DNA of 40,869 nucleotides from a virus (Duplodnaviria; Caudoviricetes): IMG/VR virus record IMGVR_UViG_3300038556_000050, positions 1-40,869 of that record. One strand, 5' to 3'. Made by a program: the position numbers and the translations under genes. Of the stretch, positions 1-27,416 are shown piece after piece (the stretch's first letter is position 1; each line of letters starts with the position of its first letter). A model generated the notes under the pieces. That model ran no database searches. It had not been told where the DNA came from and was given only the letters and a program-made list of their open reading frames with translations.

Positions 1-1089
1 TCAGGCGGCGGCCTTCATTTTCGTCAATTCGCCCTGCACTTCCTGCAACAGCTTCTCAATCGCCGCGCAGGACGCAGCCAGGTAAGCGGGGTCATGGGGG
101 GCATATTCGTCGGTGGTGGAAAACCCACCGTGCCCCAGTTGAGCCCCTACATCCCATTTCGCCACCCCTGAGGCGCGGAGCCAGCGGGCAACGGTATGCC
201 GGAGCGAGTACGGGTTTACGTCCCTCCCCAGCCCGGCATTTTTACGCATGTTTCGCCATGCGGTTTCCCACCTGCGGATGGGACGGTTTGCCCGCGTGAT
301 GTAGAGGCCCTCGCGATCATTGAACTGCCGGAGGTAGGCTTTCAGGCTCGGGGGCATCTTGACGATTGGCCGGTACTTCGGGGTCTGGACCCGCCCCGGC
401 GGGTTGAGGTCGAGCAGGTCGGCGTCGAAATCCACCCCCTCCCAGACGAACTCATAGGCCGTCGAGGGCCGGCAGCCGGTCCCCATCATCAGCATGATGG
501 CCTTGGACGTCTCCCTATTGGCTACGGCCAACAGGGAGGCGATTTGAGCGGGTTTCAGAGGGGCGCCCTTGGGCTTCTTCTTCTGCGCCTCGATAAGCTC
601 GATAAAGGGGACCGAGGCCAGCTCACCGCGCTTCCAAGCCCGGTTCGTAGCCGCTTTGATAATCCCGAGGAGGTTGTTGATGTAGGTCCGGGCGAAGCCC
701 TTCTTGAGCATCGCCTTGACAAACTCCTCGGTCTGCCCGGCGTGGCATGCCTCCTTGACCGTCTTCCCCTCGAAGAAGGTGGTGATGTTGGCCATCGAGG
801 ATTTGATGCGCCGCCCCGAGGCGAGGTTCTTGGCGTGCTGGTGGTAGTAGGCCAGCACGACCTCCTCCAACAGCACGTCCGAGGCGTCCCGCTCCTTCTT
901 GAGGGTGTTTCCGATCCACCACTCGGTCAGGAGGTCCTTGGCTTCTTGAAGGTCCGTTGTGCCAAGGCTGAAACGGCTTGTTTGTCCAGTCCGCTTGTCG
1001 AACCGGCAGCGGTGCCAGGCGGGGGAGCCGGGCTTTTTTCCGACCCACCATTCCCCGAGTTGGAGTTCTCGCTTTGCGTAACGTCCCAT
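1..1089 (-). CDS. int: Tyrosine recombinase/integrase
   Basis: Catalytic motifs TGCRPS (R), YSLRHTVA, QLGH and C-terminal Tyr (TTDEYA); 362 aa. Confidence 0.95.
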   Translation of the reverse strand: MGRYAKRELQLGEWWVGKKPGSPAWHRCRFDKRTGQTSRFSLGTTDLQEAKDLLTEWWIGNTLKKERDASDVLLEEVVLAYYHQHAKNLASGRRIKSSMANITTFFEGKTVKEACHAGQTEEFVKAMLKKGFARTYINNLLGIIKAATNRAWKRGELASVPFIELIEAQKKKPKGAPLKPAQIASLLAVANRETSKAIMLMMGTGCRPSTAYEFVWEGVDFDADLLDLNPPGRVQTPKYRPIVKMPPSLKAYLRQFNDREGLYITRANRPIRRWETAWRNMRKNAGLGRDVNPYSLRHTVARWLRASGVAKWDVGAQLGHGGFSTTDEYAPHDPAYLAASCAAIEKLLQEVQGELTKMKAAA

Positions 1090-1325
1090 GGCTGGGGCCT
1101 TCCCATGATGATGTCGGCGATCTGAAAGCCGAAGTAACGGATGCCCTTTCCGCCGGGCTCTTTCACCGGGTAGATTTTTCCAGCCATCCTCCAGCGTTTT
1201 GGCGTGGAGGGGTCCTTGTTGATGAATAGCGCGAGCTGCTCTTCCGTGTAGAGCATGTACGGCTCGATCTTGTATGCCTCACAGATGCCGTTGCGCATTT
1301 GCCAAAGCTCCTCGCGCAATACCAT
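927..1325 (-). CDS. Putative excisionase / HTH DNA-binding protein overlapping the integrase 5' end
   Basis: YTEEQLALFINKDPSTPKRWRMAGKI resembles Xis-type HTH; ATG 1325 has GAGGT RBS; lies directly upstream of int. Confidence 0.65.
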   Translation of the reverse strand: MVLREELWQMRNGICEAYKIEPYMLYTEEQLALFINKDPSTPKRWRMAGKIYPVKEPGGKGIRYFGFQIADIIMGRPQPWDVTQSENSNSGNGGSEKSPAPPPGTAAGSTSGLDKQAVSALAQRTFKKPRTS

Positions 1326-1326: not shown

Positions 1327-1638
1327 TCATACCTCGCACGACTTGCCGAGCGAGAAGAGAATGCGTGACCACTCCGGGAGAATATAGGCACCCAGGACGA
1401 GAAGCAGGCCCCCTCCCCACCAGATGAGTCGTTTTGTCACAAGACCGACTGCGAAGCCGATGAACCCGACGAGGATGATCCAGATTCTTGCGGGCTCAAA
1501 AATCGCCCAGGCGACATCCTTCAGACCGCAGTAGAGATATGGCCTCAGTCCCAAACCAACGAATGCGTAGTTGATGAGAAAGGCCATTGTGACTAGTCCC
1601 AAGGCAGCGGCTCCGGGGGACACCTTTACCTTTTGCAT
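1327..1638 (-). CDS. Small integral membrane protein (about 3 TM)
   Basis: Three hydrophobic stretches; tightly packed with the next gene. Confidence 0.6.
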   Translation of the reverse strand: MQKVKVSPGAAALGLVTMAFLINYAFVGLGLRPYLYCGLKDVAWAIFEPARIWIILVGFIGFAVGLVTKRLIWWGGGLLLVLGAYILPEWSRILFSLGKSCEV

Positions 1639-1692: not shown

Positions 1693-2094
1693 TCATATGG
1701 AATCCCGCCCCTTGTTCTTGAATACTTTCTCCCCTTTGGTTGGGCGCCAGGGGCTTTCCCATTTCACATCCCCGCCAAACAGCGTGCAGAGGAGCGTTTT
1801 GCGTCCTTCCTTTAATCCCCACACTTGGCAATCGGAAACGTCGTATGCGCGTACCATGGCTGCGTGCCAACTCCATTCATACCCCTCGGGTTTGGTTCGC
1901 CCTTCCATTTCCCGTTGAATTCGGTCGGCGGATTGAAAGCCCTTTCCTGCGCCATATGCGACGAAGAATTTCTCAAACACCGGAGGCCCGTTGAAGGCTT
2001 TCCTTTGGCGCAGTTTATCTGGAATGATGTTTACTGCGACGATCAGCGAAATCACAACAACCAAAACGACTGCGATTAAGGTGTAGACGTCCAT
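1693..2094 (-). CDS. Hypothetical protein with N-terminal membrane anchor
   Basis: LIAVVLVVVISLIVAV hydrophobic segment; GGAG RBS upstream. Confidence 0.7.
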   Translation of the reverse strand: MDVYTLIAVVLVVVISLIVAVNIIPDKLRQRKAFNGPPVFEKFFVAYGAGKGFQSADRIQREMEGRTKPEGYEWSWHAAMVRAYDVSDCQVWGLKEGRKTLLCTLFGGDVKWESPWRPTKGEKVFKNKGRDSI

Positions 2095-2543
2095 TGAAAC
2101 GGCTCCTCCCTTTTAAAAAGGACCCTCATATCCGCGAGGTAATAGATTTCCACTCTGCCTCTCGCGTCCGCGATTTCATGTGGTGTGTTTTTGAAAACGA
2201 TCACGGGCTGAAGATGAAATCCGTTGAGGTATTGCTCCCACGTCCGCCATTCCCGCCAGCCCTGAAGATCCTGCAGGTACTTCTTCGCGATCACGAAAGG
2301 CATCGTGAACATGTGCAGCTCAGCGTCGGAATGGATCAGGTCGAGAAAGCTGGCCTTCGCGTGCTGCTGCACCGTAAGGTTCTCCCCTAACCGGGGCATC
2401 TCGTCTTCCCGCATCTCCATCATCAGCATGTGAGCTTCCGCAAAAGGAAGCGTCAGGACGATGGAATTCAGGCTGTTGGCTTGGTAGGCTTTCCGCTCAA
2501 AACCAGAGGTCCGCAATACTTTCGCAGCATAGTCATCGTACAT
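2076..2543 (-). CDS. Hypothetical protein
   Basis: Open frame with natural composition, overlaps next gene by 19 nt; start uncertain. Confidence 0.5.
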   Translation of the reverse strand: MYDDYAAKVLRTSGFERKAYQANSLNSIVLTLPFAEAHMLMMEMREDEMPRLGENLTVQQHAKASFLDLIHSDAELHMFTMPFVIAKKYLQDLQGWREWRTWEQYLNGFHLQPVIVFKNTPHEIADARGRVEIYYLADMRVLFKREEPFQWTSTP

Positions 2544-3258
2544 GAGCATTTTCGGCTATTTCATTCGCCTGATCGAATGGGCGGCGCTGACCGCAACCCA
2601 ACTGACCGTTGCCCTTGTGATCGGCGTGGCGAAAGCCCTGTTTAAGGGTGTGAGCCCCTCCCCGAAGCCTCAGTTGCCGGAAACTGTATCCGCACCTCCC
2701 AAAACCCCGCAAGGGGCATACGAGGGCAATCACACCACCAACGTGTATGTCCAAATGACCCAGCCAGCCGTCGAGTTGGCACCCCCATCCCGGATACCCC
2801 AAGAGGACGGGCAGCTTTACTACACGTGGGGCAAAGAGATTGCTGTCCACCCCCGGTCGGATGACTTATTGGAGCGTGTCGATTACATCGCCCAGGTCAA
2901 ATTCCACGACACCGCCGAAAGTATGAGGCCGCTCAAGCCGGACACCTCCACGCCCGGTGTCGCCCTGCGCTTCGACCTCCCCCAACTCCAACCCGAGCTC
3001 ACGGAGTTCGTGCCCGGGTCCAAACCTCTCGCCCTGCCCGACGACGACGCGCAAATCTACATCGCCGATGGCAAATCGTTTACTCGCGCGGGCGACATGT
3101 CGATGGTTTTGCCCAAGCGTGCCGAACCGCTGATCCCGATGCAGCTGCTGTATATCCCCATCCCTCCAGGTGATAACGAGCTGTGGGTGGCACGCACGTC
3201 AGACATTCTCCCACTTCGAGATCACCCCGAGGCTGCGCACCCAACCCGCGCCCTCTAA
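2542..3258 (+). CDS. Hypothetical membrane-anchored protein upstream of relaxase
   Basis: N-terminal hydrophobic helix, Pro-rich linker, globular C-terminus; 238 aa. Confidence 0.6.
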   Translation: MSIFGYFIRLIEWAALTATQLTVALVIGVAKALFKGVSPSPKPQLPETVSAPPKTPQGAYEGNHTTNVYVQMTQPAVELAPPSRIPQEDGQLYYTWGKEIAVHPRSDDLLERVDYIAQVKFHDTAESMRPLKPDTSTPGVALRFDLPQLQPELTEFVPGSKPLALPDDDAQIYIADGKSFTRAGDMSMVLPKRAEPLIPMQLLYIPIPPGDNELWVARTSDILPLRDHPEAAHPTRAL

Positions 3259-3340
3259 TGCGCTCCGCGTGCGCCTGAATGCCCGTTAGCAATCGTTGCG
3301 GAAATATCATGAAGCGTTGCAAAGCCCATCAGGGACAGCG

Positions 3341-3369
3341 CGGTTAGACTTTTTTCAAAAGTCCACCCG
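3341..3369. promoter_or_regulatory. Inverted repeat, candidate oriT element
   Basis: GACTTTT-TTC-AAAAGTC (3347-3363) with imperfect CGG/CCG extension, immediately upstream of the relaxase. Confidence 0.35.
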
Positions 3370-3404
3370 TTCAGCACGCCTTCAGCGGTGTAGAATTGCA
3401 TCAG

Positions 3405-4901
3405 ATGCAATCCGGGTTTTACCGATTTGAACATTCATACTTGAGCCGCGCCGGCAACAAGGTCCGCGGCAAGAGCGGGCGTTTCCACCTGTCAGCAATT
3501 GCAAGCTACATATCGAACACCAACAAAGCCTGCGACGTGCTCGCCGTGAACCTCTCCGAAGAGAGGGGAGAGCTTTACTCGCAACTCAACAGGCACTCGG
3601 CGAGCGTGACGAGAGCGAATGGTCGGATCGCCGAAACATTCATCATCAGCTTCGATGCGCGCATGAGCGATGAGCACCAGCGCGAAGCCCTCAATAATTT
3701 CCTCATGGCCGTCACGTTCAATGGCCAGACCAGGGCGACCGCCTACCGGCACAACGACCACGAACACAATCCTCATGCCCACGTCATCCTGATCGACACC
3801 GACGAGAACGGCGAGCCGGTCGGTCACTTCGGCCGCTCCGGGTCTTTCAGACGCGAGCACAGCCCGGTTAAGGGCAATCCCACTGTCTGGCTGCGGAAGA
3901 CCTGGCAGGATGAATGTAACGCGGTCCTAGAGGCCAATGGGTACGAATTCCGCATCGACATGCGGAGCAATTTAGAGCGCGGGATCGCCGAGGCGCAGAA
4001 AAAGCGCGGCCTCACCCAAGAAGGGCCGATCTCCGCCGATGGGGTACGTGAGCAAAAACATACTGACCATGTTGGTGAGGCCAACAAAAAGGGCGAAATC
4101 AAAGACTTGGAGCCCGCCCCCGAATGCCCTCCAATGCCCGTTGATGCGCCTGAGGCCGAAACCTACCCTGCCGACCTTCCCCGTGAGGACGATATGGCCG
4201 ATATCGAAGACGAGCTTGAGCCTATCCAAACCCCGAAGCAAAGAGTCCAGGCTGCCCTTTACTTTCGGGCGGCGAAACTCGACCTCCTCCAGATCCGATC
4301 AACGCGGGATGTCTGCCGGCTTTCCTTCAGCTCTGCGCAAAAAGAGCTGGAGACTGCACAGAACGAATGGACCCAAGCCTACCACGCCAAGGCGAATGCG
4401 GAGAAACGTGTCTTCATGGCTGAAGAAAGGTCCGATGGAAAAGTTAGGGGCGCCCGGATCAAGATCGGCTCATTTGAGTGGAAGAGTGAGGCCCGCAAAC
4501 AATCCGAGCAGGCTCAGGCCAATCTCTCCAGCGCGTTGAACGCGCGCGAGCACGCCTCGTATGTCGAGAAGTCCACGGCTGAACAGCTCGTCCGTTGGGA
4601 TACCGCCCAGAAGCAGGCGAAAGAGAAACTCCATGCGGCCGAAGCGGTGTTGCAGGACCACCTCACCCGGTTCGGCCAGGACGCCACGCTTGAGACCGCT
4701 GAAGGGCTTCTCGAATACAATGTCAGGTACAACCTCGACAAGATCCGCGACCGGGACAAATCCACTGGCGAAGAGCGGGAGGATTTGGAATTGGTCCTCA
4801 AGGACCTTCTCGACACAGAGCAGATCACCGAGGCTGAATACAACGACGCCCTCGGGGTAATCGGAGGCGGGATTGAACTTGATGAAGACCAAACGCTTTA
4901 G
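3405..4901 (+). CDS. HUH relaxase (MobA/MobL, MOBQ-like) with C-terminal coiled coil
   Basis: N-terminal FYRFEHSYLSR...SAIASYIS (candidate catalytic Tyr), 3H motif HNDHEHNPHAHVIL, RIDMRS resembling the MOBQ RIDHRS motif; ATG 3405 or TTG 3396. Confidence 0.85.
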   Translation: MQSGFYRFEHSYLSRAGNKVRGKSGRFHLSAIASYISNTNKACDVLAVNLSEERGELYSQLNRHSASVTRANGRIAETFIISFDARMSDEHQREALNNFLMAVTFNGQTRATAYRHNDHEHNPHAHVILIDTDENGEPVGHFGRSGSFRREHSPVKGNPTVWLRKTWQDECNAVLEANGYEFRIDMRSNLERGIAEAQKKRGLTQEGPISADGVREQKHTDHVGEANKKGEIKDLEPAPECPPMPVDAPEAETYPADLPREDDMADIEDELEPIQTPKQRVQAALYFRAAKLDLLQIRSTRDVCRLSFSSAQKELETAQNEWTQAYHAKANAEKRVFMAEERSDGKVRGARIKIGSFEWKSEARKQSEQAQANLSSALNAREHASYVEKSTAEQLVRWDTAQKQAKEKLHAAEAVLQDHLTRFGQDATLETAEGLLEYNVRYNLDKIRDRDKSTGEEREDLELVLKDLLDTEQITEAEYNDALGVIGGGIELDEDQTL

Positions 4902-6391
4902 AGATAACGCGGCGTGTTTGTTTTCGGATCGATCTCGTAAGGCAGTTTGCATTCAAGATTGAGCCTATCAGCTAGGATAACCGCCCGCCCCCTCGGCAAT
5001 GCCTTCAGCTCGTTGACCTTCTTGAGTTGCCGCGCTGTTTCATGTTGGCCCTCGCTCTTTCCATGGTCCGCCAAACTTTCCGACTTCGACATCGCGGTGT
5101 AGTCGCCAAGCAGACCTGCCACCGTCGTGTACAAGCGGGTATCCTTAAGCCCGCCGGTCACGATCCAATCACAGCCATCAATAAGAGGCTGTGCCTTCTC
5201 AGCGCCGCCGTAGTTTGTAACCACCTGGCCGATTGACTGCCAGCACATGAAAACGTTGACACCAACCTTTCGGAGCTGGGTAACGGCATGCAGGATGGGC
5301 TTGCAGAAGCCAAGCGTGTCCGCCTCATCCACAAAGACCCTGAGACCCTTCGGAAGTGGCTTACGATGCGTCGCGTAGAAGCGCTTCACTGCATCGATGC
5401 ACTGGCCGATGACGATACGATTGAAGGCACCGGAAACCCTCTCATCTCGAAGCCCACCGATTACGAATACGGCGACAGGTTTGGGGTTGTTGAAGACATC
5501 CTCCCAGCACCACGGATGGCTATTTGGCTTCATAATCTCCTTGATGGCAGGGTCATTGTAAACCCGAAGCTTACGCCCAATGGTGGAGTTGAAACTACCT
5601 TTCTCACGCTCCTTGACCCGCATGAAGACATTGATGCCTGCCTTTGCGGTATCCGACCCATTGGCCTGGATCAAGCCCAGTACCTTATCCCGCTCTTCCT
5701 CAGGAGCGGTCGCAAGCAAGCGCAACGGCTCGGCGAGCGTTGCTTGCGACCCCTTTTGTTGAAACTCCCAGTCGATCAGCGCAGCGACGACACCGTGGGC
5801 CGCGTCGATGAAGTGAGTGGAGCTGGCGTGCTCCTCCATATCGGGGACGAGCAGGCTTGCGATGGCCTCTACATCTGAGCCCTGACTAAATTGCGTCGAG
5901 TTCTTCAGCGGCGAAAGTGGGTTGTAATTGGTATTGCTCGCAGGGTTATCCAGATCAAGGACGAGCAGATCGTACCCGGCAGTCTTAAGCTTATCTCCGA
6001 ACTTGCCCAGATGCTCGCCCGCCGGATCACCGATCAGAATGTCGGGCTTTCTTTCGAGGTCGCAGAAGTAGTTTAGGTTGGCGGCAAACGTCTGACTTTT
6101 CCCCTCGCCACGTTTTCCGAAGAAATGGACGCACGACTCCGAGAGGCTGAAAACACGCTGCTTGTCTTGGAAACCGATAAGGAATCCGCCCGGGGTCAAA
6201 TGACCATCCCGCTTCAATTCCTTGAGCGTGGCGAAGCCGGCATTGCCGTGAGTAGGGGCTGCCTTTTGTTGCCCTCTAATCCATCGCACTGCCCGTGGCG
6301 CAAATTCCGTGATCAGCCACTTTAGGAAAAGCACGAGCGAGCCGATTGCATAGAGGCTCCACTCGATAGGTAGCAATAATCCTCGCAGCAT
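4898..6391 (-). CDS. virD4: Type IV coupling protein, VirD4/TraG family
   Basis: N-terminal TM, HGNAGFA motif, Walker A GKRGEGKS, DPAGE, YNPL, Walker B VFVDEADTLG, QSIGQ. Confidence 0.92.
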   Translation of the reverse strand: MLRGLLLPIEWSLYAIGSLVLFLKWLITEFAPRAVRWIRGQQKAAPTHGNAGFATLKELKRDGHLTPGGFLIGFQDKQRVFSLSESCVHFFGKRGEGKSQTFAANLNYFCDLERKPDILIGDPAGEHLGKFGDKLKTAGYDLLVLDLDNPASNTNYNPLSPLKNSTQFSQGSDVEAIASLLVPDMEEHASSTHFIDAAHGVVAALIDWEFQQKGSQATLAEPLRLLATAPEEERDKVLGLIQANGSDTAKAGINVFMRVKEREKGSFNSTIGRKLRVYNDPAIKEIMKPNSHPWCWEDVFNNPKPVAVFVIGGLRDERVSGAFNRIVIGQCIDAVKRFYATHRKPLPKGLRVFVDEADTLGFCKPILHAVTQLRKVGVNVFMCWQSIGQVVTNYGGAEKAQPLIDGCDWIVTGGLKDTRLYTTVAGLLGDYTAMSKSESLADHGKSEGQHETARQLKKVNELKALPRGRAVILADRLNLECKLPYEIDPKTNTPRYL

Positions 6392-6448
6392 GAATCTCGC
6401 TCGTGTTACCCTTTAATCCTTCAGGCAAATCTTAAAACGTTTCACCCT

Positions 6449-6465
6449 GGCAGAGCTTCTCTGCC
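6449..6465. repeat. Palindrome in the virD4/ardC divergent intergenic region
   Basis: GGCAGAG-CTT-CTCTGCC perfect 7-bp inverted repeat. Confidence 0.5.
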
Positions 6466-6498
6466 TGGAAGCGTCTGCCTGACTCATGGAGTGCCGAG

Positions 6499-7446
6499 AT
6501 GAAGGCCTCAGATCTCTACAAGTCAGTCACAGAGAAAATCATAGCAGAGCTTAAAGAAGGAGTCGCGCCGTGGGCAAAGCCGTGGAAAGACGGGACCCGA
6601 GGCCTTCAAACCATGCCCGCGAACGCTACTTCCGGGCGCCCCTACAGTGGAATCAACGTCCTCATCCTCTACATGGAGGCCAAGGAAAAGGGGTATCCGA
6701 CCCACGGCTGGGCAACCTTCCAACAGGCAAACCAGATCGGCGCCAGCGTCCGTAAGGGCGAGAAGGCCACTCAGGTCATCTTCGTCAAGCGGTCCACCAA
6801 GACCGACGAGACGACCGGCGAGGAGAAGAAGTCCTCGGTCATGCGGGCCTACCCCGTCTTCAACCTGGCCCAACTCGACAACGTGCCTCCGCAATACCTG
6901 GATGCACCTCCTCCGGTCGATGAAGACGTTGCCCACGACAACGCCTTCCAGCTCTGCAAGGACATCGGCGCCAATATCCAGCACGGCGGCAATCGCGCGG
7001 CTTACTACCCGCAGCGCGATGAGATCGTTTTGCCGCCGTTCGGAGCCTTCAAGAGCGAGGCTGACTATTGGGGGACCTGCTTCCACGAGGTCACCCACTG
7101 GACCGGAGCGAAGAAGCGGCTTGACCGACAATTCGGCAAGCGGTTCGGCGACAAAGCCTACTCGTTCGAGGAACTGGTGGCCGAGCTTGGAGCAGCGTTT
7201 ATCTGCGCCAGGCTAGATATCCCGGCAACCTTCCGCTCAGCGGCCTATATCGACCACTGGCTGAAGATCCTCGGTGAAGATAGCCGGGCCATCTTCACCG
7301 CGGCGAGCTACGCCGGCCACGCTGCCGACTATACCTTTGAGCAGCAGCACGCCGTCCAGGAACACACCCCCGACGTGGAGCGGCAGCAGCCCCTCACACC
7401 GCGCGCGGAATCCGCGAAGGAAATGGACGACGAAATTGCCTTTTAG
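6499..7446 (+). CDS. ardC: ArdC-family ssDNA-binding antirestriction protein with zincin-like domain
   Basis: PWAKPW, YSGINVLIL, WATFQQA, VRKGEKA, HEVTHWTG (HExxH), YSFEELVAELGAAF. Confidence 0.93.
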   Translation: MKASDLYKSVTEKIIAELKEGVAPWAKPWKDGTRGLQTMPANATSGRPYSGINVLILYMEAKEKGYPTHGWATFQQANQIGASVRKGEKATQVIFVKRSTKTDETTGEEKKSSVMRAYPVFNLAQLDNVPPQYLDAPPPVDEDVAHDNAFQLCKDIGANIQHGGNRAAYYPQRDEIVLPPFGAFKSEADYWGTCFHEVTHWTGAKKRLDRQFGKRFGDKAYSFEELVAELGAAFICARLDIPATFRSAAYIDHWLKILGEDSRAIFTAASYAGHAADYTFEQQHAVQEHTPDVERQQPLTPRAESAKEMDDEIAF

Positions 7447-7486
7447 GCAAACGAGGCCCTCACCGGGCGACTTGCCGGACTTCGGC

Positions 7487-7511
7487 GCCCTCCCTACGGG
7501 GAGGGCTTTTT
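7487..7511 (+). terminator. Intrinsic terminator after ardC
   Basis: GCCCTCCC-TACG-GGGAGGGC followed by TTTTT. Confidence 0.85.
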
Positions 7512-7755
7512 ACATCCAGCGGAAGACGAATAAGTATAGCATAAAGGCTGCGCCTACCGTGATGGCGCCGACTCGGACGGTGGTTTTATAGGGCGGAGGA
7601 GCCCACACCTCTGTCGCGAAAGCAAAGGCCAAGGCAAGACCGCCCCCCACTGCAATGAATCCGACTAGCCAGGCTAGGATTGTGGTGAAGGTGTCGAGAA
7701 ACATCACCCCGAAGGCGAGGACTGAAGCCGTTATTAGGAAGACCTTCAGCGACAT
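7510..7755 (-). CDS. Small membrane protein at end of lysis cassette
   Basis: 81 aa, almost wholly hydrophobic. Confidence 0.55.
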   Translation of the reverse strand: MSLKVFLITASVLAFGVMFLDTFTTILAWLVGFIAVGGGLALAFAFATEVWAPPPYKTTVRVGAITVGAAFMLYLFVFRWM

Positions 7756-7931
7756 ACGGCCTCCATCGCAATATCCAGCTCAAAAACCTGCTTGATCGTT
7801 TCTTCTGTGTCTGCCGGGGATACCGAAGGGGCGTACCGGTTATAAGTCACGCAGCCGGCCTCGGTCCTTGAGGAAACGCATCCGGTCATCAGGAGACCAG
7901 CCACGAGACTGAGCAACGGCTTCGTCAGCAT
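7746..7931 (-). CDS. Outer-membrane spanin (Rz1-like lipoprotein)
   Basis: Lipobox LMTG-C after hydrophobic signal; overlaps upstream gene in another frame. Confidence 0.75.
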   Translation of the reverse strand: MLTKPLLSLVAGLLMTGCVSSRTEAGCVTYNRYAPSVSPADTEETIKQVFELDIAMEAVCR

Positions 7932-8076
7932 CGAGAACTTTCTCCACGGTCTTCTCGGCTCGTGCGCCGTCCTGCAGCTTCACCGCTACGACCGCCGTCC
8001 CCAATGGCTTCAGATACGGCTTTACCGCCTCCAACAAAGCTTTGAGGAAAGCCAGTACCGCAGCCCATGAAGGCAT
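7840..8076 (-). CDS. Inner-membrane spanin (Rz-like)
   Basis: Hydrophobic N-terminus plus helical domain; overlapped by the lipoprotein gene; follows holin with TAATG coupling. Confidence 0.65.
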   Translation of the reverse strand: MPSWAAVLAFLKALLEAVKPYLKPLGTAVVAVKLQDGARAEKTVEKVLDADEAVAQSRGWSPDDRMRFLKDRGRLRDL

Positions 8077-8249
8077 TAGGCCTGTTTCTGTTCAGCCATC
8101 GAGCGAGCGATGAGGACCAGTACGCCAAGGATGGCATTCACTGTCCCGGCGTGATCGCCAACAAGGGACGCGAAATCCGGGCTCATTTGGAGGACGCCGA
8201 AGATGCTCACGAGCAATCCGGCGATATAAGTCTTCTTACCTTTCAACAA
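8076..8249 (-). CDS. Putative holin (57 aa, absent from ORF track)
   Basis: Hand translation MLKGKKTYIAGLLVSIFGVLQMSPDFASLVGDHAGTVNAILGVLVLIARSMAEQKQA; 2 TM; TTG start; between endolysin and spanins. Confidence 0.7.
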   Translation of the reverse strand: MLKGKKTYIAGLLVSIFGVLQMSPDFASLVGDHAGTVNAILGVLVLIARSMAEQKQA

Positions 8250-8387
8250 CGCCTTACCCTTTCATTGGGTAAAGCGTGAGCCGGGCCGAGATTCTTGTCA
8301 AAGAAAAAAGGCCGCCCCCATGAAGCAGCCTTTGCTCCCGCCGGGTAGGAGCTGAACAACCAACAGGACCGGCAACCGGAATCTAAC

Positions 8388-8753
8388 TCACTTGCTTTTG
8401 TCCGTCCACAAAGTCTCTTGCTCGCGGTTGTCAAGGTGCACGTGCCGATCGCAGACCTCGATGCCGTTGATGCCCGCCTGCATCGCTGCTTGGACGATCT
8501 TATAGCGCTTCTCTGAATTGGTGCAGGCGATGTCGACGGCCTCACCGGTAAGATGTTTGCTGAACTTGGCGCCTTTGATCTTCGCATTATGCGAAGAGGT
8601 CCTGAAGCCCGCGTTCACCTTCCATGGGAAACCGGCGAATAAGCGAGCCTGGTCGAGCTTCTTGAGGAAGTCCGAGTTCATCTTCACACCGCTGCCCGGC
8701 TCATCCGGACTGTCGAACTCCTTCGACTTGAAGTGGCGGATGGTCCATTTCAA
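8388..8753 (-). CDS. Endolysin, peptidase M15 family
   Basis: GFRTSSHN, SKHLTGEAVDI (SxHxxGxAxD), HVHLD zinc ligands. Confidence 0.88.
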   Translation of the reverse strand: MKWTIRHFKSKEFDSPDEPGSGVKMNSDFLKKLDQARLFAGFPWKVNAGFRTSSHNAKIKGAKFSKHLTGEAVDIACTNSEKRYKIVQAAMQAGINGIEVCDRHVHLDNREQETLWTDKSK

Positions 8754-9004
8754 CGCAGCTTATCCAGCTTGGCTTTGATATCTGCGACGTTCGACTTTAC
8801 GACCGCCACGTCAGCCTTCATGTCCGCCAGAGATGATGTTGCCGCCTTTAGATCCCGGATGTCGTCGTTCTGCCGATCGTTCATGGCATCGTTGGAAGCG
8901 GTATAGCTGGCTGCCCACCAGATGAAGGCGATGATTTGCAACGCCATCATGGACATCATCCCTACAGGAACTTTCTTGTCGAGGTGCCACGATTCCCGAC
9001 GCAT
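8750..9004 (-). CDS. Small membrane protein with coiled coil (holin/antiholin-like)
   Basis: WHLDKKVP + one TM + heptad tail; coupled to endolysin start. Confidence 0.6.
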   Translation of the reverse strand: MRRESWHLDKKVPVGMMSMMALQIIAFIWWAASYTASNDAMNDRQNDDIRDLKAATSSLADMKADVAVVKSNVADIKAKLDKLR

Positions 9005-10011
9005 CAGTCCAGCTGCTTAATGCTGTAGTTTGACGACCCCACATTGGTACTGATGAGGACGCCGTTCAAGAAACCAATCTGAGGATTCAAAAGGGCTTCC
9101 AGGTAGTCGGTTGTCCCGTTCAATACCACTTTCGCCGTGCATTCGATGCTGAAAAGGGCTTGGAAGCTTATCAGTACCGAGCGTTGGCACACTTGCGTGC
9201 TGCCGTTCTTTCTCAGAACCAGATATACCTGAGCACCTGTAGCAGCCACGGAAAAGGGGTTGATACTCAAGCCGAATGTTACTTCGTAGGTTTTCGATAC
9301 GCCATTCGTCGGTTGAAAGCGGCTTGTGGTTAGGCTGATGTAGTTTCCAAACGCAGCCGAGCTGGAGATGGTCGGCGCAACCGTGGTGCTGATAATTTTT
9401 AAGCCAGTGCCGGAGATCGTTTGGGAGGTTAGGGTTGTTTCCAGGAAGTTTGCAGTCGTGGCCGCTCCGCTTCCGCAGCCTGGTCCTGTACACGAACCGA
9501 GATAAGCGAAGGATGCAGAGATATTGCGGGCATTCAGGGCAGTGGCGCTCAGTACTTTGCTCGCGCTCACAACGTCTGCTGTCAGCACCATGCGGCTCTG
9601 AGGAGACGCGCTGTTAGACGTGACCGCGATGGCGCCAATGCTGGCAAAACTGACTTCGCTGCCGGTGCTATCTAAGCCATTCAAATAAATGGTACTGAGG
9701 TCCTGGTTTGCCGTGAGCGTATTGTCATTGTTGGTCAAGTACAGGTTCGGGTAACCAGGTTCACCCAAGGCGCCTGTAAGGGCTAAGCCGCCCTCATAGA
9801 AATAGGCGGTAGTTGTCCCCTGGATATTGACCTGAATCTGGTCATTGACACTGTTTGCTACAACACTTTCGGTACCGGAAACGATCCGATCGCCTTCGGC
9901 GCTACTGCTTCCGCCGTCTCCTCCCAACAGGCCTTGGAATAGATTGCCGCCGGCGTGAGCGTTGCCGACGATCGAACATAGTAGCGTCAGAAGGAGGACG
10001 AGGTTCTTCAT
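9004..10011 (-). CDS. Ser/Thr-rich fibre/receptor-binding-like protein with signal peptide and possible C1q/TNF-like C-terminal domain
   Basis: MKNLVLLLTLLCSIVGNAHA signal-like N-terminus; beta-rich; C-terminal YEVTFGL...LRKNGS...VVLNGTTDYLE; end of tail operon. Confidence 0.6.
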   Translation of the reverse strand: MKNLVLLLTLLCSIVGNAHAGGNLFQGLLGGDGGSSSAEGDRIVSGTESVVANSVNDQIQVNIQGTTTAYFYEGGLALTGALGEPGYPNLYLTNNDNTLTANQDLSTIYLNGLDSTGSEVSFASIGAIAVTSNSASPQSRMVLTADVVSASKVLSATALNARNISASFAYLGSCTGPGCGSGAATTANFLETTLTSQTISGTGLKIISTTVAPTISSSAAFGNYISLTTSRFQPTNGVSKTYEVTFGLSINPFSVAATGAQVYLVLRKNGSTQVCQRSVLISFQALFSIECTAKVVLNGTTDYLEALLNPQIGFLNGVLISTNVGSSNYSIKQLD

Positions 10012-10262
10012 TTCGGCTGGGCCACCCGTAAATCTGTGGGGACCGCGGCATAGTTGGTGCTGACCTTCATGGTACCGGCACCAGTGCCACTCACCTCAAC
10101 TACCGTTTCCTTGCTTGGATCGGTTTTGAAGATGATGGGTGTGCTGCTCACCTGCGAAGAGCGCACGATGTCGTTGTTGGTATCGATGACCAGAGCATTA
10201 GCCTCAAACAAAGTGAGGAGCGTCAACGCCGTGGTCGCCAGAAGTGGTTTTAAGCCTTTCAC
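10008..10262 (-). CDS. Small protein with signal-peptide-like N-terminus
   Basis: GTG start gives MKGLKPLLATTALTLLTLFEANA; ATGA-coupled to next gene. Confidence 0.55.
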   Translation of the reverse strand: MKGLKPLLATTALTLLTLFEANALVIDTNNDIVRSSQVSSTPIIFKTDPSKETVVEVSGTGAGTMKVSTNYAAVPTDLRVAQPK

Positions 10263-10319
10263 ATACCGAGCTTTCGTTGGTTGATTAAAACGCACACCAG
10301 TTTCGTGCGTCAAACTTTT

Positions 10320-11867
10320 TCATTGGCCAGCCATCGCGCGTAGACTCGTCTCGACCCGGCCCTGGCCCATCTTCTTGCCGGCCATCTTGGCCAGAGAAGC
10401 CCCAACCAAGGTCGCGCCTCCCGTCGAGATCCCGGTAGAGCCAGCCACAAGCAGGTTCAGCATCGGTCCCATGATCCCGTTGTTCTTGATGTCGGTGATG
10501 TCCACCCCGGCCTTGCCAACCAGGTTGAGAAGCCCCTCGCCTTGTGATGGGAAAGCCGCAGCCCGCAGCAGCTTGATCTGTTCCGGAGTGAAGCCGCGCA
10601 GTTTCTTCTCGGCGCCGGGCCGGAACCATGAGCGCAGCGAGGTACGGACCTTGTTGATGTCGCCATCCGCGAATTCCACGACTTTACGGAAATCGTCGAA
10701 GCGTTTGAATTTGCTGTAGTCGCCGAGGTATTTGTAGAGTGTCTGCACGTTTTCGGTTGAGCCCATCGTCAGGTCCTTGTCGCTGAGGCCTTCAACCCAA
10801 TCATCGAACTTCGCCAACAAGGAGGTCGCCTTGGCAGCATCCGCCTTCCCGTCCGGCTTCGCATAATTCCGGGAGATGAACTGGCCGATGGTTTGACGGA
10901 CCTGATGGATCTTATCGAGCGTGATGGGTTTGTTTTTGTAGCTCTTGAGGTCCTCGAGAACTGCGATCGTGTCGCCGTAGAGCTTCTGGGCCGCGCTCCC
11001 AGCCAAGTCGCCCTCACCCTCCAGTTCCGTGACGATCTTATCGATGCCGGCGTTAGTCGCCTTCTTCGAAACTGTCGTCCCGGTCTTATTAGCGGCCTTG
11101 AGCGTGGCGTCGGCCTGATTGGCAAGCGCCTGTCCGACCTGCTGCCATTCCTCTGCGGTCTTGGTACCGAAGCCCTTCCGGATCGCCTTGACGCCTTCGG
11201 AGACCTCGCTGGCGACCTTGGTACCGCCGCGCACCGCGCCGCCGGTCGCGCCGCCAACGGCGATGTTCTGAAGCTTGCTGTCACCGCTGCCCGTCGGCGC
11301 GTTGGCGCCCTCGACCCCGCCCAGCGCGGCTGCGCCGGCAATGGTCGTCTTAATAGCTTGTGGAGCCCGCGCCACGGGGGTGGTTACGATGGCACCAGCC
11401 ACGTTCCCGGCTAGGGCGGAGAGCTTGCCAGCGGTGCCGAGCCTATCGACCCGTGCGCGGCTCTCGTCTACCGCTTCCGTGGCCCGCCTCTCGACCCCTT
11501 CAGCTGCCTGCCGCAGTTTGCCTGTTGAATAGGAGCCGTCCGGGTTCAGGGTATCGCCCGGAGATGGACCACCGATGCCGAAGATGTCCGGTGGGGATGT
11601 GAGCTGCGCCAGCGTCTGGATCACGCCAAGCCCGGCCTGCCCGACACCTTCAACCAACCCCTTGGCAGAACGCGCCGCGGTGGAGCCCTCCGGTTTCTCT
11701 TCGGCCTTGGGGGCTTCCGCCTTTGGGGCCTCCGGTTTGAACGCCCGAATCTCTTCCAGCGTGACACCCTCAGACGCGATATAGGCGTCGATATCCTCTT
11801 CGGGGGCTCCCACCCCGACCATCTTCGCTACGTTGCGTTTGATTCGGGCCAGGTCATTCGAGGCCAT
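10320..11867 (-). CDS. Internal virion / DNA ejection protein
   Basis: 515 aa, Ala/Gly-rich helical, third of three such genes after the tail hub, as in P22-like gene order. Confidence 0.65.
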   Translation of the reverse strand: MASNDLARIKRNVAKMVGVGAPEEDIDAYIASEGVTLEEIRAFKPEAPKAEAPKAEEKPEGSTAARSAKGLVEGVGQAGLGVIQTLAQLTSPPDIFGIGGPSPGDTLNPDGSYSTGKLRQAAEGVERRATEAVDESRARVDRLGTAGKLSALAGNVAGAIVTTPVARAPQAIKTTIAGAAALGGVEGANAPTGSGDSKLQNIAVGGATGGAVRGGTKVASEVSEGVKAIRKGFGTKTAEEWQQVGQALANQADATLKAANKTGTTVSKKATNAGIDKIVTELEGEGDLAGSAAQKLYGDTIAVLEDLKSYKNKPITLDKIHQVRQTIGQFISRNYAKPDGKADAAKATSLLAKFDDWVEGLSDKDLTMGSTENVQTLYKYLGDYSKFKRFDDFRKVVEFADGDINKVRTSLRSWFRPGAEKKLRGFTPEQIKLLRAAAFPSQGEGLLNLVGKAGVDITDIKNNGIMGPMLNLLVAGSTGISTGGATLVGASLAKMAGKKMGQGRVETSLRAMAGQ

Positions 11868-13113
11868 ACTTGGCTTTCAGCTCTTGACCGCGTTGTGCCT
11901 CATCGATTGCTGGGCCTCCAGGGCCTGCGACCACCTTCACACCATCAAGGGCACGCTGACGAGCCTCAGATTTGAGCTTGACGGTTTCAGGCTTGTCTCC
12001 TGGCATTGGGAAGTACATCGGACCGTACAACTGGAACTCCTCTCTCGTGATAGCCGCACCGGTATCGCCGCGAAGGATGCCGGCGAGAAATTCCTTTTGG
12101 GCCTGGAAGTACTTTTGCGCGTCGGCCGACAAGGAGGCGTTGGCTGCCGCCCCTGCTCCCGGCACCAAGCTCAGAATCCCGCCCTCGCCCTCGGCGATGT
12201 TCTTGAGGCCGGCGCTCCAAAGGCTGGTCGGATTGAATTCCTTACTCCCTTCTAGCCCGCTGAGGGTCTGCATCGCACCCTGCATGCGGAGACCGAAGTT
12301 GGTATTCTTGCTCTGCGCTTCGGTCATCTTGACCGGCTTAGCGCCAGGCGCCGCTCCTGAAGCCGGGCTTGGGGCAGACGAAGGCGCCGCCGCTGGAGCG
12401 GGGCTCCGGATCGCGTTGGCCCGTGCCTGCTCGGTCTCCAGATCGGCAGTGAGGTTGTCGTTCTTGAGCTGCGCGTTGGCTTGTTCAAGCCGCTGAACGG
12501 ATCGAGCAGCATAAGCCTCCGGCGCGTAGGCCTTCAGCATCGCGTCTACTGGAACAGGATTCGGGTCCATGACCAACGAACCGTCCTGCCCTTTACCGTA
12601 AGCCTGGATAACGTCAACGCCGCTGATGTTGACGACCTTGGCGCCGTCGATCGGCACGCCGATACGGCTTTGCAGGAGCTTCGCGCTGCCCGGATTCGCC
12701 GCCAGCCAGTTCGGGACGCCGCTTTCATCGCCGAGCTGGGCCTGTTCGAGAGCTTGAGCGAGCTGGGCACCGCTCTGGGTCGCCTCGACGTGGGCCATGG
12801 CTGCCTCTTCAATGGCTCCCTGACGCTGTTTCAGCTTCATCTCGTAGTCCAGCAGCTCGCGCATTTGCTGATTGTTGATGTCCCGCTGAACCTGTGCTTT
12901 GCCCTTCTTGGTCAGCGCGACCCCGCCAGTAATCCCCTTGAGGAGAGCTGATACCGGGTCGCTGGCTTGGAAGCCGTTCGCGATCTCCGCCAAAGAGGAG
13001 GCGGCGACATCATCGCTGGTTTGCTGGGAGTTCAGTGTCTGAAGGTTCTGCATCGGGTTGCCGCCCTTTGCGAGCTTCAGGATATCCATTGTGCTGTATT
13101 CGCCGGTTGCCAT
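11854..13113 (-). CDS. Internal virion / DNA ejection protein
   Basis: 419 aa Ala/Gln-rich; ILRGDTGAAIT...YFPMPGD C-terminal motif; synteny. Confidence 0.65.
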   Translation of the reverse strand: MATGEYSTMDILKLAKGGNPMQNLQTLNSQQTSDDVAASSLAEIANGFQASDPVSALLKGITGGVALTKKGKAQVQRDINNQQMRELLDYEMKLKQRQGAIEEAAMAHVEATQSGAQLAQALEQAQLGDESGVPNWLAANPGSAKLLQSRIGVPIDGAKVVNISGVDVIQAYGKGQDGSLVMDPNPVPVDAMLKAYAPEAYAARSVQRLEQANAQLKNDNLTADLETEQARANAIRSPAPAAAPSSAPSPASGAAPGAKPVKMTEAQSKNTNFGLRMQGAMQTLSGLEGSKEFNPTSLWSAGLKNIAEGEGGILSLVPGAGAAANASLSADAQKYFQAQKEFLAGILRGDTGAAITREEFQLYGPMYFPMPGDKPETVKLKSEARQRALDGVKVVAGPGGPAIDEAQRGQELKAKYGLE

Positions 13114-13116
13114 TCG

Positions 13117-13902
13117 TCACCTCATACCCATAGCAGAGAACCCCGCACCAGCGGATGCGCCGGCCATCGGGCCGCCCAAGGCATAAGCGCCGAGAGTCGC
13201 AAGTGCGGCTAGGTTGTTGAATTTATTTCCTGCGTTCTGCGCGTTGATGGCGTTTGCATTCTGCTGGGCGCCATAGATCGCAAGGCTACGATTCTGCTGA
13301 AGACTGGCATCGCTCAACTGGAACTGCTGAGAGCGACCGAGGGACTGCGTAAGCTGACCAAGCTGGGTATCCATCCGGCCTGTCGCAAGTGAGTACAGGT
13401 TCGAGGCGTTGCCCAGCTCGTTTTCCCGAACGCCCTGCTCAATAGAAGAAAGGTCTCGGTTTATCTGCCCGCGGCTATCAGTGTAATCCTGACCGCGTTG
13501 AGCGCGGGCTACATTCCCCGCGGTGCTGTCCGCCTGTCCGTATCGGGCTAAGGTGCGTTCTTCTTGGCCCGTTCGATCGGCCATAGCCGCATCTAGACCC
13601 TTTACCTGCGTCGTCTCGTAATCAGCCAGGTACTGATCTAGCCAGGGAATCTGGGACCGGTCGTAGTTGGTCGAGAGCTTCTCGATCCAGCCAAGGCTTT
13701 CATCGGCGATGGATTTAAGCTTGTCCTCGTAGGCCTGCTGTTCCGGCGTTAGAGGCAGCCGGGTCGTCACCAGCGTCTTGGTGCCGTCCGGGTTTGTGAC
13801 ATAGGTGGATTGAGTCCCACCGATTTCATCGCGTGTGTCGACATATTGTGGCGGCGGCGGATCAGCCGGTGCAGAAGCTTTGGGCGAACTAAAGAGACTC
13901 AC
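13117..13902 (-). CDS. Internal virion / pilot protein (P22 gp7-like position)
   Basis: GTG 13902 gives MSLFSSPKASAPADPPPP; Gln/Asn-rich; Gly/Ala hydrophobic C-terminus. Confidence 0.65.
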   Translation of the reverse strand: MSLFSSPKASAPADPPPPQYVDTRDEIGGTQSTYVTNPDGTKTLVTTRLPLTPEQQAYEDKLKSIADESLGWIEKLSTNYDRSQIPWLDQYLADYETTQVKGLDAAMADRTGQEERTLARYGQADSTAGNVARAQRGQDYTDSRGQINRDLSSIEQGVRENELGNASNLYSLATGRMDTQLGQLTQSLGRSQQFQLSDASLQQNRSLAIYGAQQNANAINAQNAGNKFNNLAALATLGAYALGGPMAGASAGAGFSAMGMR

Positions 13903-14257
13903 GCATGCCGAACTTTCCTTCGTACTCTGCCTTGGGCAGAAGCACGTCCCCATCATCATAGGTGAGGTTGAATCCAAGTGACAACAGGCTTGCGAGGGTC
14001 TTCGGGTTTGAGAGACCCATGCGCAGCCTCGTCACCCCAAAGTCTTTGAAGGGCATCTCGAACATCTCGCGGATATGGCCTCGCGTCACAAGCCGCCCTT
14101 GCCACTCGGGGGCGATTGCGACGCTCAGGCTGCACTCATCCTCACGGAAGTCATGATAGGCGATCCACATGATGACCTCGCCGTCGGTGTTCTGGATGAT
14201 GTAACTTCTGGCCGACATCAGCTTGCGCGCTGAGCTGAGCTGATCTTGAGGATGCAC
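13889..14257 (-). CDS. GNAT-fold phage protein (P22 gp14-like position); 5' end possibly frameshifted
   Basis: SVAIAPEWQGR...MFEMPFKDFGVTRL...LLSLGF; directly upstream of ejection genes. Confidence 0.65.
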   Translation of the reverse strand: MHPQDQLSSARKLMSARSYIIQNTDGEVIMWIAYHDFREDECSLSVAIAPEWQGRLVTRGHIREMFEMPFKDFGVTRLRMGLSNPKTLASLLSLGFNLTYDDGDVLLPKAEYEGKFGMRESL

Positions 14258-14318
14258 CAGCCCGCATTTGCTCAGCAGCCGATGGATTCGAAGTTGAGAT
14301 GCGTGGCGAGGGTGAAGA

Positions 14319-15206
14319 TCATTTGCCGATCGCGAAGTAAACGAATCCGGTGTCGTTACCGGCGTTTGTAGTGTTCCCTACCCTGACCGTGATCGCGGAT
14401 GTGCTGCAGGAGGTCGCGAGGGACTGAGAGCCATTAATACTGCCGTCATCAGCGACGTTCGCGAATGAGTAGAAGCAAGAGTTTGGGAATGCTTTGGAGA
14501 AGTTGGCTGAACCCGTACCGTTATTCGTTGCGGTCATCGTCCCAGATCCCCACTGCAGGATATAACCACCAGCGAATTCGCAGCGGCCTGTCGTGGTACC
14601 CGTGCAGTTGGCCAACGACAGGGCTGTTGCAAACAACTTGTTGTCCGTCCCAGAAATGATTGTTGAGGCAGACGCAGCACCGAACGCGGAGCCACCAAGC
14701 GTGATCGATCCCGCCTGCAGCGTGGTAACGCTGGCGTTCGTCGTCGAGACCAAAGAGGTTGAGATCCCGGCATTGGCGACAAGGAGCCCAGCCGACGCAA
14801 TGTAATTCGAAGTTACACCAGCCGTCGTGAACGAGATCGTCGTGGCGCTGTTTGTGTAGACGCCGGTTGAGCCGCTCGCGATGCTGGTCTGACTTAGGTT
14901 TAGCGAGGCCCATGTGGCAGATGTGCCATTATTGGTGAGGTACTTGTCTGCATTGCCCGATACTGACGGCGGTGTCCGGACATCCAGCTCATTCAGCGCC
15001 TGGTAGGCCTTGTTGAAATCGCCATCGACCTTCGCCGAGGAGATAGCGGTATGGTTCGCACTATCCGTTTGATATTTCGTGGTGTTGACGGAGTGATTTG
15101 AGGGCGTGTAGGCCCCCGCAGGGCGCTCATATGTGGCGGCGAAGGCCAATGACTTGAGCGGTACGAGAAATGCAACGAGAGTGCAGGTCAACTTCCAGTT
15201 TTTCAC
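14319..15206 (-). CDS. Tail fibre/needle-like protein with signal-peptide-like N-terminus
   Basis: AISSAKVDGDFNKAYQALN attachment-like segment, C-terminal GGYILQWG...FSKAFPNSC...YFAIGK typical of small phage fibre tip domains. Confidence 0.7.
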   Translation of the reverse strand: MKNWKLTCTLVAFLVPLKSLAFAATYERPAGAYTPSNHSVNTTKYQTDSANHTAISSAKVDGDFNKAYQALNELDVRTPPSVSGNADKYLTNNGTSATWASLNLSQTSIASGSTGVYTNSATTISFTTAGVTSNYIASAGLLVANAGISTSLVSTTNASVTTLQAGSITLGGSAFGAASASTIISGTDNKLFATALSLANCTGTTTGRCEFAGGYILQWGSGTMTATNNGTGSANFSKAFPNSCFYSFANVADDGSINGSQSLATSCSTSAITVRVGNTTNAGNDTGFVYFAIGK

Positions 15207-15210
15207 ATAC

Positions 15211-17037: not shown

Positions 17038-17672
17038 CCCAGATAGCTTTCAACGTGTTTTACCGCTTGGGGGTACTTGGCGTCGTAATGGGCGAAGATA
17101 CGGTCCCACAGCTCCTTGCAGGCCTTGTCGTTGTAGGCAAGTTCGGCGCCGACGATCTTGTCGCGCTCGTCATATGCCATGAGCTTAAGGGATTCCCAGA
17201 CATAGACGCTATGGAACACGCTGGGCAGGAAGAAATCAGCCTCCTCGCTGGATTCGTCCACCTCTTCCGGCAGTGGCGTGAAGCTCACCTGAGCATTGGT
17301 ATCGTTCTTCGGGTGCAGGCGAAGGCCGGTCTTTCCTGATTGATAGTATTCGTCCGGTGCGCCTTCGTCATCGAGGCCGGGGTCCTTTTCCTGCACCGCA
17401 CTTATATCGGTTGGCGTCAATTCGTTGTAGTCGTTATCCGCATCCCGGACGCCGAGGATATGCAGCGGCTCAGGGCTTAGGACACCCACGCCAGCGGTGA
17501 TGGCAACGGTCTGGAACTCCTGAGCTGCTACCGGGCAGAAGGACGTGACCTTCTCGTAGACATCCTTCACGGCCATGTTGAGGTAGCTGTAGACCTTCGT
17601 ATTGTCCGTCGAGCTGGTCGCCCCGATCAGCGCCAGACTCTTGATGCGTTCGACGATGGCAGCAGGCGTCAC
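17034..17672 (-). CDS. Head-tail adaptor (P22 gp4-like position)
   Basis: 212 aa; GAPDEYY...LRLHP, LPSVFH motifs of podovirus adaptors; synteny. Confidence 0.7.
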   Translation of the reverse strand: MTPAAIVERIKSLALIGATSSTDNTKVYSYLNMAVKDVYEKVTSFCPVAAQEFQTVAITAGVGVLSPEPLHILGVRDADNDYNELTPTDISAVQEKDPGLDDEGAPDEYYQSGKTGLRLHPKNDTNAQVSFTPLPEEVDESSEEADFFLPSVFHSVYVWESLKLMAYDERDKIVGAELAYNDKACKELWDRIFAHYDAKYPQAVKHVESYLG

Positions 17673-17717
17673 GTTCCTTCTTTCAATTAGTTAGGGGCCT
17701 ATAGCCGCCCCTTTGGC

Positions 17718-18089: not shown

Positions 18090-18104
18090 GTCCTTGCCCT
18101 CCCC

Positions 18105-18395: not shown

Positions 18396-18408
18396 GACTT
18401 AGCCCTCC

Positions 18409-19557: not shown

Positions 19558-19578
19558 CCTCTTAGCTTTCTATTGGTT

Positions 19579-22265: not shown

Positions 22266-22271
22266 CTCCGG

Positions 22272-22547: not shown

Positions 22548-22608
22548 GTTGATGACTTTCGTTATGCGAGAGAATCATTGAGCGAATTGAAATTGTTGGC
22601 AAGCGTCT

Positions 22609-27397: not shown

Positions 27398-27416
27398 TTC
27401 TCGTACTTTCTTTTCG

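Follow-up and report, generated by a model that had tools for sequence, protein, structure and literature searches.

A conserved mobilisation cassette with a predicted origin of transfer in alphaproteobacterial prophages of at least five virion types

Introduction

Phages and conjugative elements are usually classed by mutually exclusive routes of spread, and a prophage that carries conjugation genes raises the question of whether two neighbouring elements have been read as one or whether a single phage may also move by mating. This question is posed by the IMG/VR provirus IMGVR_UViG_3300038556_000050, which is trimmed at gene edges and whose whole length of 40,869 nt is called here the window. 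Between its integrase and excisionase-like genes and its lysis genes lie an intact relaxase, a VirD4-like type IV coupling protein (T4CP) and the anti-restriction protein ArdC, as an earlier note made from the letters of this DNA had stated. Together with a predicted origin of transfer (oriT), these genes are recognised from sequence as a real, conserved and selected phage-borne mobilisation (MOB) cassette occurring on at least five virion types. Because the intact kit of oriT, relaxase, T4CP and ArdC stands beside the integrase in the window and in about 20 relatives, the window is read as one temperate phage that is probably mobilised by conjugation through the pore of another element, besides its likely spread in virions.

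The mobilisation genes

The Pfam and PHROG family scans of the window covered 58 open reading frames (ORFs) picked from 218 listed. No VirB/Trb or transposase family was found among these 58, and a search of all six frames of the record with PF00589 gave one integrase, in agreement with the earlier note; Rep and Par plasmid families were likewise absent from the 58 ORFs, the element being an integrase-bearing provirus and not a phage-plasmid. The MOB segment of that note began at position 2542, and its relaxase, T4CP and ArdC part stands, while the 238-aa ORF that it also took in (2542-3258) belongs to no family and is not evidenced as a mobilisation gene.

The active-site residues of all three proteins are preserved. 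The relaxase Tyr35 and its H-x5-NPHAH motif are invariant in 7/7 aligned relatives, the T4CP possesses a Walker A motif (GKRGEGKS), a Walker B motif (FVDEA) and an N-terminal hydrophobic segment, and the HExxH motif of ArdC is intact. Both by profile and by fold the closest solved structures to the relaxase are 4HT4 (NES) and 2NS6 (R1162 MobA), which are both MOBQ enzymes (PMC4814116), and its nearest plasmid relatives include that of pHAE1, classed as MOBQ1. With the MOBQ relaxases (RSF1010/R1162 MobA, NES, pHAE1) it shares a single tyrosine, the three-histidine motif and a nic motif placed after an inverted repeat. Its score against Pfam PF03389 (41.9) exceeds the cut-off of 26.7, and that against the NCBIfam MobQ model NF041496 (44.2 bits) is far under the curated cut-off of 200, so that the protein is best assigned to a divergent clade of MOBQ type, which comprises 37 clusters (E<=1e-30) in a set of 1.84 billion proteins.

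In the structure model the N-terminal nuclease domain of the relaxase is followed by a disordered linker and a C-terminal long helical hairpin with a beta-hairpin tip, in contrast to the primase or helicase found at this end of the known MOBQ enzymes. The hairpin is reminiscent of the BID secretion signal (PMC6509941); however, no BID match was obtained in the sequence, Foldseek or VIA results, where nothing but generic coiled coils came up (best Z 12.3). The C-terminal tail is acidic.

The relaxase, T4CP and ArdC are under purifying selection, like the capsid. The ratios of nonsynonymous to synonymous substitution rates (dN/dS, Nei-Gojobori) for relaxase domain, T4CP and ArdC, respectively, are 0.068, 0.062 and 0.121 between the window and G001 (capsid 0.173), 0.083, 0.067 and 0.165 between G002 and G003 (capsid 0.072), and 0.077, 0.010 and 0.013 between G799 and G801, with synonymous divergence (dS) close to saturation in two of these three close pairs and unsaturated (0.22-0.36) in the last. 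The capsid values over the close pairs span 0.07-0.17, and three more distant pairs gave higher ratios, up to 0.56, where the genes compared are not close relatives.

A second, shorter MOBQ-like relaxase group (L091-L101, L103) was seen in 11 of 401 genomes of the family of G002 (E 1e-38 to 1e-46), two of them with weak T4CP neighbours; it is a possible outgroup of the cassette.

The predicted origin of transfer

Upstream of the relaxase, eight aligned elements have in common a minus-strand site made up of an inverted repeat and then TAACYGCRC. In the window this site, which the earlier note did not record, occupies 3338-3363, 42 bp upstream of the relaxase gene. All 56 cells of the aligned stem are paired, and three of its seven pairs changed on both sides among the eight elements. 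The covariation score of the stem was reached by 0/500 shuffles, a control that the kinship of the eight elements inflates, and slid controls were lower too. A generic oriT detector returned 13 matches in 102 sequences (1.36 Mb) and none in 200 simulated windows; twelve of the 13 are the same site in these elements, some loci being one element, and the other, close to a different relaxase, is a TAAGTGCGC site of the classical kind.

RSF1010 has its nic site, TAAGTGCG/CCCT, following an inverted repeat, with NWACCNNTAAGTGCGCCCTYNN as the consensus of the family (PMC4814116, PMC3832669). On these two grounds the cut is predicted between 3339 and 3338, and the site of the window is considered a putative MOBQ-like oriT, differing from the MOBQ sites in having TAAC where they have TAAG. 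In a more distant relaxase subfamily a different inverted repeat is found at the same position, a perfect repeat of at least 7 bp being present in 9 of the 11 regions examined. Used alone as a query, the oriT motif retrieved 11 IMG/VR records, seven with the whole block (three of them already found) and four without MOB genes.

One element or two

An integrative mobilisable element (IME) and a prophage standing in tandem, as in the tandems of phages with integrative conjugative elements (ICEs), might give the same gene order. The location of the integrase, excisionase-like and MOB genes at the lysis end of the phage would suit such an arrangement, as would a 7.5-kb phage-free element, G004 (L005:6731-14230), inserted at the same chromosomal site as the window and having an integrase 65% identical to that of the window. 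G004 holds a NikA-like gene, an intact relaxase and a partial ardC, and it lacks both T4CP and virion genes, so it may be a deletion remnant or a minimal IME.

The limits of the relatives argue for a single element. A single direct-repeat pair encloses integrase, MOB, lysis and virion genes together in G001 (45 bp; 41.5 kb), G003 (41 bp; 40.2 kb) and G009 (48 bp; 46.2 kb), and a pair matching at 31 of 35 bp does so in G008 (42.7 kb). The repeat of G003 is part of a tRNA-Val gene; those of G001 and G009 correspond by eye to the 3' half of tRNA-Thr, a tRNA which ARAGORN called beside a related integrase in L052. A search for an internal copy of the attachment site (att) on the lysis side of ardC gave best matches of only 22/45 in G001, 21/41 in G003 and 24/48 in G009, and a best-match scan of the window for its own att core gave only 18/31. 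In the examined stretches of G596, G007, G800, G799, G801 and G006 an att pair was not found. By its terminal overlap the 37.4-kb record G802 (CheckV 100%) is a circle, which unites integrase and MOB block with a P22-type coat, portal and terminase.

For the window itself the att core was located on the source contig (L051), 68-98 bp to the left of base 1; it codes for the beginning of what we take to be a gloA-like gene and matches the repeat which bounds G004. Since a single att pair, with no copy inside, delimits four relatives, and one complete circle is known, the window is likewise regarded as a single element. The single integrase, the closed circle holding both modules and the recurrence of one junction across 22 records and several att sites speak against the tandem, which is largely refuted and very improbable. 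The single-element claim of the earlier note, phage by gene content and mobilisable by gene content, is thereby upheld, since no att copy separates ardC from the lysis genes in the window or in 3/3 relatives examined by best-match scan, and both a predicted oriT and purifying selection are present.

The same block on different virions

The order integrase, excisionase, variable slot, relaxase (+), T4CP (-), ardC (+) and lysis genes is conserved with its orientation in 22 records: the window, G001-G003, G005-G009, L052, G596, G799-G802 and G804-G810, among which G799/G801, G806/G807 and G809/G810 are close pairs. The relaxases of the relatives are 24-59% identical to that of the window, and the hosts, alphaproteobacterial wherever named, are Bradyrhizobium, Xanthobacter and Ancylobacter. 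The excisionase homologue adjoins the integrase in most relatives and was not matched in G801. The variable slot holds weak ribbon-helix-helix (RHH) or NikA-like proteins in several of them, being NikA-like in L005 and represented by sub-cut-off RHH matches in L072 and L052. Hairpins similar to the one found in the window also lie 3' of ardC in relatives.

This one block is combined with five or more head modules, of short-tailed as well as long-tailed phages. A P22-like portal with a PF13252 capsid is found in the window, G001, G005, G006, G806 and G807; an SU10 head in G002, G003, G007 and G800; a Gp13-like capsid with tail tube and tape measure (long-tailed) in G008, G009, G596 and G808; an HK97-like long-tailed type in G799 and, by its tail genes and closeness, in G801; and a P22 coat in G802 and G804. 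The head of G809 was not assigned to any of these types, and head types were not seen for L052, G805 and G810; in the last (L160) no head genes were recognised, which makes it an example of decay.

The earlier note had looked for congruence of head and MOB gene trees; this was not borne out, as the relaxase, T4CP and integrase trees (the last built by a quick method and without G006) conflict with one another and with head type. For example, the long-tailed G008 and the SU10-type G800 are sisters by T4CP and belong to a common relaxase clade, and G006 and G009 share a relaxase and differ in their heads. This pattern points to gene shuffling in a phage pool with the layout conserved.

An integrase-alignment scan of IMG/VR returned 21 records, 17 of them with the block; ten of the 21 were already known, and therefore the independent count is seven of 11. 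Without the block are four records: a 5-kb fragment carrying a capsid gene, two phages of the PolA/SNF2 type and the match that was weakest. The integrase clade is thus tightly linked to the MOB block. A capsid scan gave four matches, two with MOB genes and two that are fragments ending in tail genes. Such pattern scans miss members, because an alignment search of IMG/VR with the T4CP gave no match at all.

The family is rare. Its relaxase clade occurs in two of 401 genomes of the family of G002, both of which were in the query alignments and both of which also have the integrase at E<=1e-90; strong matches among 401 genomes of the order are likewise two. Among 50,697 INPHARED records no cultured phage matched the window relaxase, and a search of the same collection with the T4CP and the G003 relaxase yielded only weak, unannotated faecal contigs.

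Proposed route of transfer and its alternatives

In the proposed scheme the integrase and the excisionase-like protein would excise a circle of roughly 41 kb, the relaxase would nick its minus strand at 3339/3338 and stay on the 5' end, and the T4CP of the phage would pass the relaxase-DNA complex to a borrowed VirB/Trb channel; since the element has no mating-pore genes, the pore must be external. Judging from the orientation of the oriT, the integrase gene would lead the incoming strand, which would continue over attP into the methyltransferase and replication genes and finish with ardC, T4CP and relaxase. The entry of the relaxase gene at the end is the usual layout. The methyltransferase gene would thus reach the recipient soon after attP, ArdC and the methyltransferase may counter recipient restriction, and the integrase would re-integrate the circle, with the predicted site at the 5' end of gloA for the window and at tRNA-Thr or tRNA-Val for relatives.

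Several findings weigh against this proposal. The att evidence for the window itself consists of the left core only, and no excision joints were seen in the assembled contigs of one sequencing run, probably the source run, which gave a single 56-kb contig. No MobC or RHH accessory gene is recognisable in the window, the phage-free remnant G004 lacks a T4CP, and the MOB module is broken in two of the 22 records, by a stop splitting ardC in G596 (L134:4028-5035) and by an IS66 inside the relaxase of G809 (L146:4300-7000). The near saturation of dS in two close pairs and the portal and terminase starts described below count on the same side. The ardC gene would enter last, unlike in R388, where it lies in the leading region and ArdC is required in the recipient (PMC7213743); the transferred strand is, at any rate, the template strand for ardC. 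VirB4 (PF03135) was matched in two of five host genomes, that of G002 (E=5e-36 and 1e-6) and, weakly, that of G003, and in none of those of G001, G004 and G596. Hitchhiking elements with no helper are nevertheless common, being found in 24% of E. coli genomes (PMC11389934).

The missing VirB4 in three of five hosts could also mean that relaxase and oriT work inside the cell, either in rolling-circle replication or in maintaining the circle after excision, with no DNA exported. Relaxase-driven replication is known for ICEs, and NicK of ICEBs1 is a relaxase acting in circle replication and maintenance. However, all 22 phage records retain a T4CP that has a membrane anchor and intact Walker motifs, and this gene is the one under the strongest constraint (dN/dS 0.01-0.07); the phages also have O-like or DnaB replication genes of their own; a purely intracellular role is therefore judged unlikely.

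The position of the oriT, at most 3.4 kb from the attachment site and directed at the flanking chromosome, brings in another possibility, namely that the cassette mainly targets other elements or the host, with the T4CP occupying or redirecting incoming pores or the oriT mobilising the neighbouring chromosome in an Hfr-like manner, and that self-transfer is a by-product. A related case is the mobilisable SGI1, which remodels its helper's pilus (PMC11389934). Yet a cognate oriT with relaxase, ArdC and integrase is the usual self-transfer kit, and no fertility-inhibition family was detected in the family scans of the window; little probability is accorded to this explanation.

The virion genes, in turn, might no longer give infectious particles in the host, leaving conjugation as the sole route of a mobilisable island. 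In the window the portal (22256) and the large terminase subunit gene terL (~23980) have no ATG, GTG or TTG start (compare L054:10000, L054:8290 and L060:14910), an unrelated ORF stands between terS and terL, CheckV completeness is 56%, G004 and G810 are decayed members, and the INPHARED search found no cultured relative. The portal frame runs straight on from the stop of the upstream gene, its third codon being CTG, CTG or ATT in the window, G001 and G005, and the terL start would be an ATA overlapping TAG in the window or a GTC just after the in-frame terS stop in G001. Nevertheless, G001 and G005 have such non-canonical starts at the same position. Conserved non-AUG starts or stop read-through may possibly operate here. 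The terminase, portal, capsid, tail and lysis genes of the window are all in open frames, the capsid is constrained as given above, the att-bounded relatives (40-46 kb) equal the window in size, and G802 is a complete circle. A loss of the particle route thus appears improbable, and spread by both routes is preferred.

The ORF between terS and terL (24009-24593) encodes a 194-aa hydrophobic protein of no family, and this insert is not present in G001.

Beyond the window, an alphaproteobacterial class of dual-route elements is put forward tentatively, at slightly less than even chances: integrase, oriT, relaxase, T4CP and ArdC would form its lasting core and whole virion modules would be swappable, with exit either by lysis or, non-lethally, through a borrowed pore that reaches tail-resistant cells.

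Relation to known systems

The nearest precedent for the mobilisation of a prophage in trans by a type IV secretion system (T4SS) is that of the SMphages, integrated streptococcal prophages moved by the T4SS of a helper element independently of particles, at about 2e-7 per donor (PMC13651849); helper-T4SS mobilisation of SMphages is also reported in PMC13693407 and PMC12462003. They concern Gram-positive hosts and one phage lineage, and their descriptions, in the accessible text, name no phage-encoded relaxase, oriT or T4CP (PMC13651849, PMC13693407). By these descriptions the window family is set apart, since its phages bring their own oriT, relaxase, T4CP and ArdC, with five or more head modules.

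IMEs and mobilisable plasmids having their own relaxase and T4CP, for instance CloDF13, resemble the family in the combination of integrase, oriT, relaxase and T4CP with no pore (PMC11389934, PMC12282955), whereas the att-bounded unit of the family also holds full virion, lysis and replication modules. In phage-ICE tandems phage and conjugation genes are adjacent and the phage integrase makes a transferable circle, but such a tandem possesses two integrase systems, a complete T4SS and an att in its interior, and according to the authors these are not hybrids (PMC13651849). The family, which has a single integrase and neither an internal att nor a pore, differs from them, and the identity of a phage-ICE tandem was rejected for the window on the same points, a full T4SS being absent.

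Phi1207.3 is likewise a phage-type element linked to conjugation; the accessible text of its paper leaves relaxase and coupling protein unmentioned and calls the mechanism unknown (PMC4260502). P1-derived mobilisable plasmids acquire mob while shedding phage genes (PMC10879196), in contrast to the window family, where phage and mob sets are both retained under selection. Conjugative phage-plasmids and relaxase-bearing viral clusters are mentioned in 10.64898/2025.12.20.690322, and no comparable element was found in the accessible parts of PMC12282955 or 10.64898/2026.01.13.699239. No description of a phage-encoded oriT-relaxase-T4CP-ArdC cassette in integrated alphaproteobacterial phages was found in a literature search that left subscription papers largely uncovered, and the supplements of PMC13651849 and of two preprints may list such elements.

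The selection of both gene sets across at least five virion types runs against the usual classing by exclusive routes. If transfer is shown, the host range of a phage could depend on mating contact instead of receptors, some chromosomal relaxases tallied as IMEs would be prophage genes, and the phage would gain a non-lethal exit. The proposal is testable, as a strong VirB4 match accompanies the element in the cultured host Xanthobacter sp. VTT E-85241 (G002) and the nick is predicted to the exact base.

Other features of the window

The coordinates of the main features are collected in Table 1.

Table 1. Features of the 40,869-nt window and the evidence for each
Feature	Position	Strand	Evidence or remark
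Tyrosine integrase	1..1089	-	PF00589
Excisionase-like helix-turn-helix (HTH) protein (putative function)	1086..1322	-	overlaps integrase start; weak BldC-type HTH match, E=1e-4
Small hydrophobic protein	1327..1638	-	no family; same-place homologue in G001, G002, G003, G802
Variable slot, three ORFs	1693..3258	1693-2094 -, 2076-2549 -, 2542-3258 +	no family
Predicted oriT	3331..3363	-	7-bp inverted repeat 3347-3363, then TAACCGCG/C
MOBQ-type HUH relaxase	3405..4901	+	PF03389 MobA_MobL, E=1.3e-10
VirD4-like T4CP	4898..6391	-	PF02534, E=4.8e-26; also PF12696, PF10412; convergent with relaxase
ArdC anti-restriction protein	6499..7446	+	PF08401 + PF18818; ssDNA-binding and zincin domains; HEVTHW, EELVAE motifs
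Terminator-like hairpin and T-run	7487..7511	+	read from sequence; separates ardC from convergent lysis genes
Lysis region	7746..9004	-	M15 endolysin 8388-8753 (PF08291, phrog_894); putative spanin-/holin-like small ORFs
Short-tailed virion module	9004..25235	-	terS, terL, P22-like portal, scaffold, SU10-type adaptor, tail fibre, predicted ejection proteins
Capsid within virion module	18409-19557	-	PF13252; syntenic module in G001, G005, G006
O-like replication initiator	34450..35274	-	phrog_270/391
C5 DNA methyltransferase	38866..39747	+	PF00145

The early region (25460-40869) consists of a patchwork of short ORFs in both orientations, including a KTSC-domain gene (32228-32572), and no repressor was recognised among its scanned ORFs. 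At the far end of the window a DUF3800 gene (40174-40869) represents defence-type cargo; at this end relatives contain EcoRII-like and PvuII-like restriction-modification pairs and a SIR2-like gene (L058:14124-17044; L060:3170-5013; L060:10601-11575). Four relatives have genes with the H-NS C-terminal domain close to their far att end (L058:17850-18197, L053:16338-16721, L120:1034-1417, L117:15252-15596), a region that would go in early on the predicted transferred strand. Finally, the G001 prophage contains a LigD-like ATP-dependent DNA ligase gene (L054:1622-2524), and a tRNA-Trp gene is located inside G799 (L122:5939-6013).

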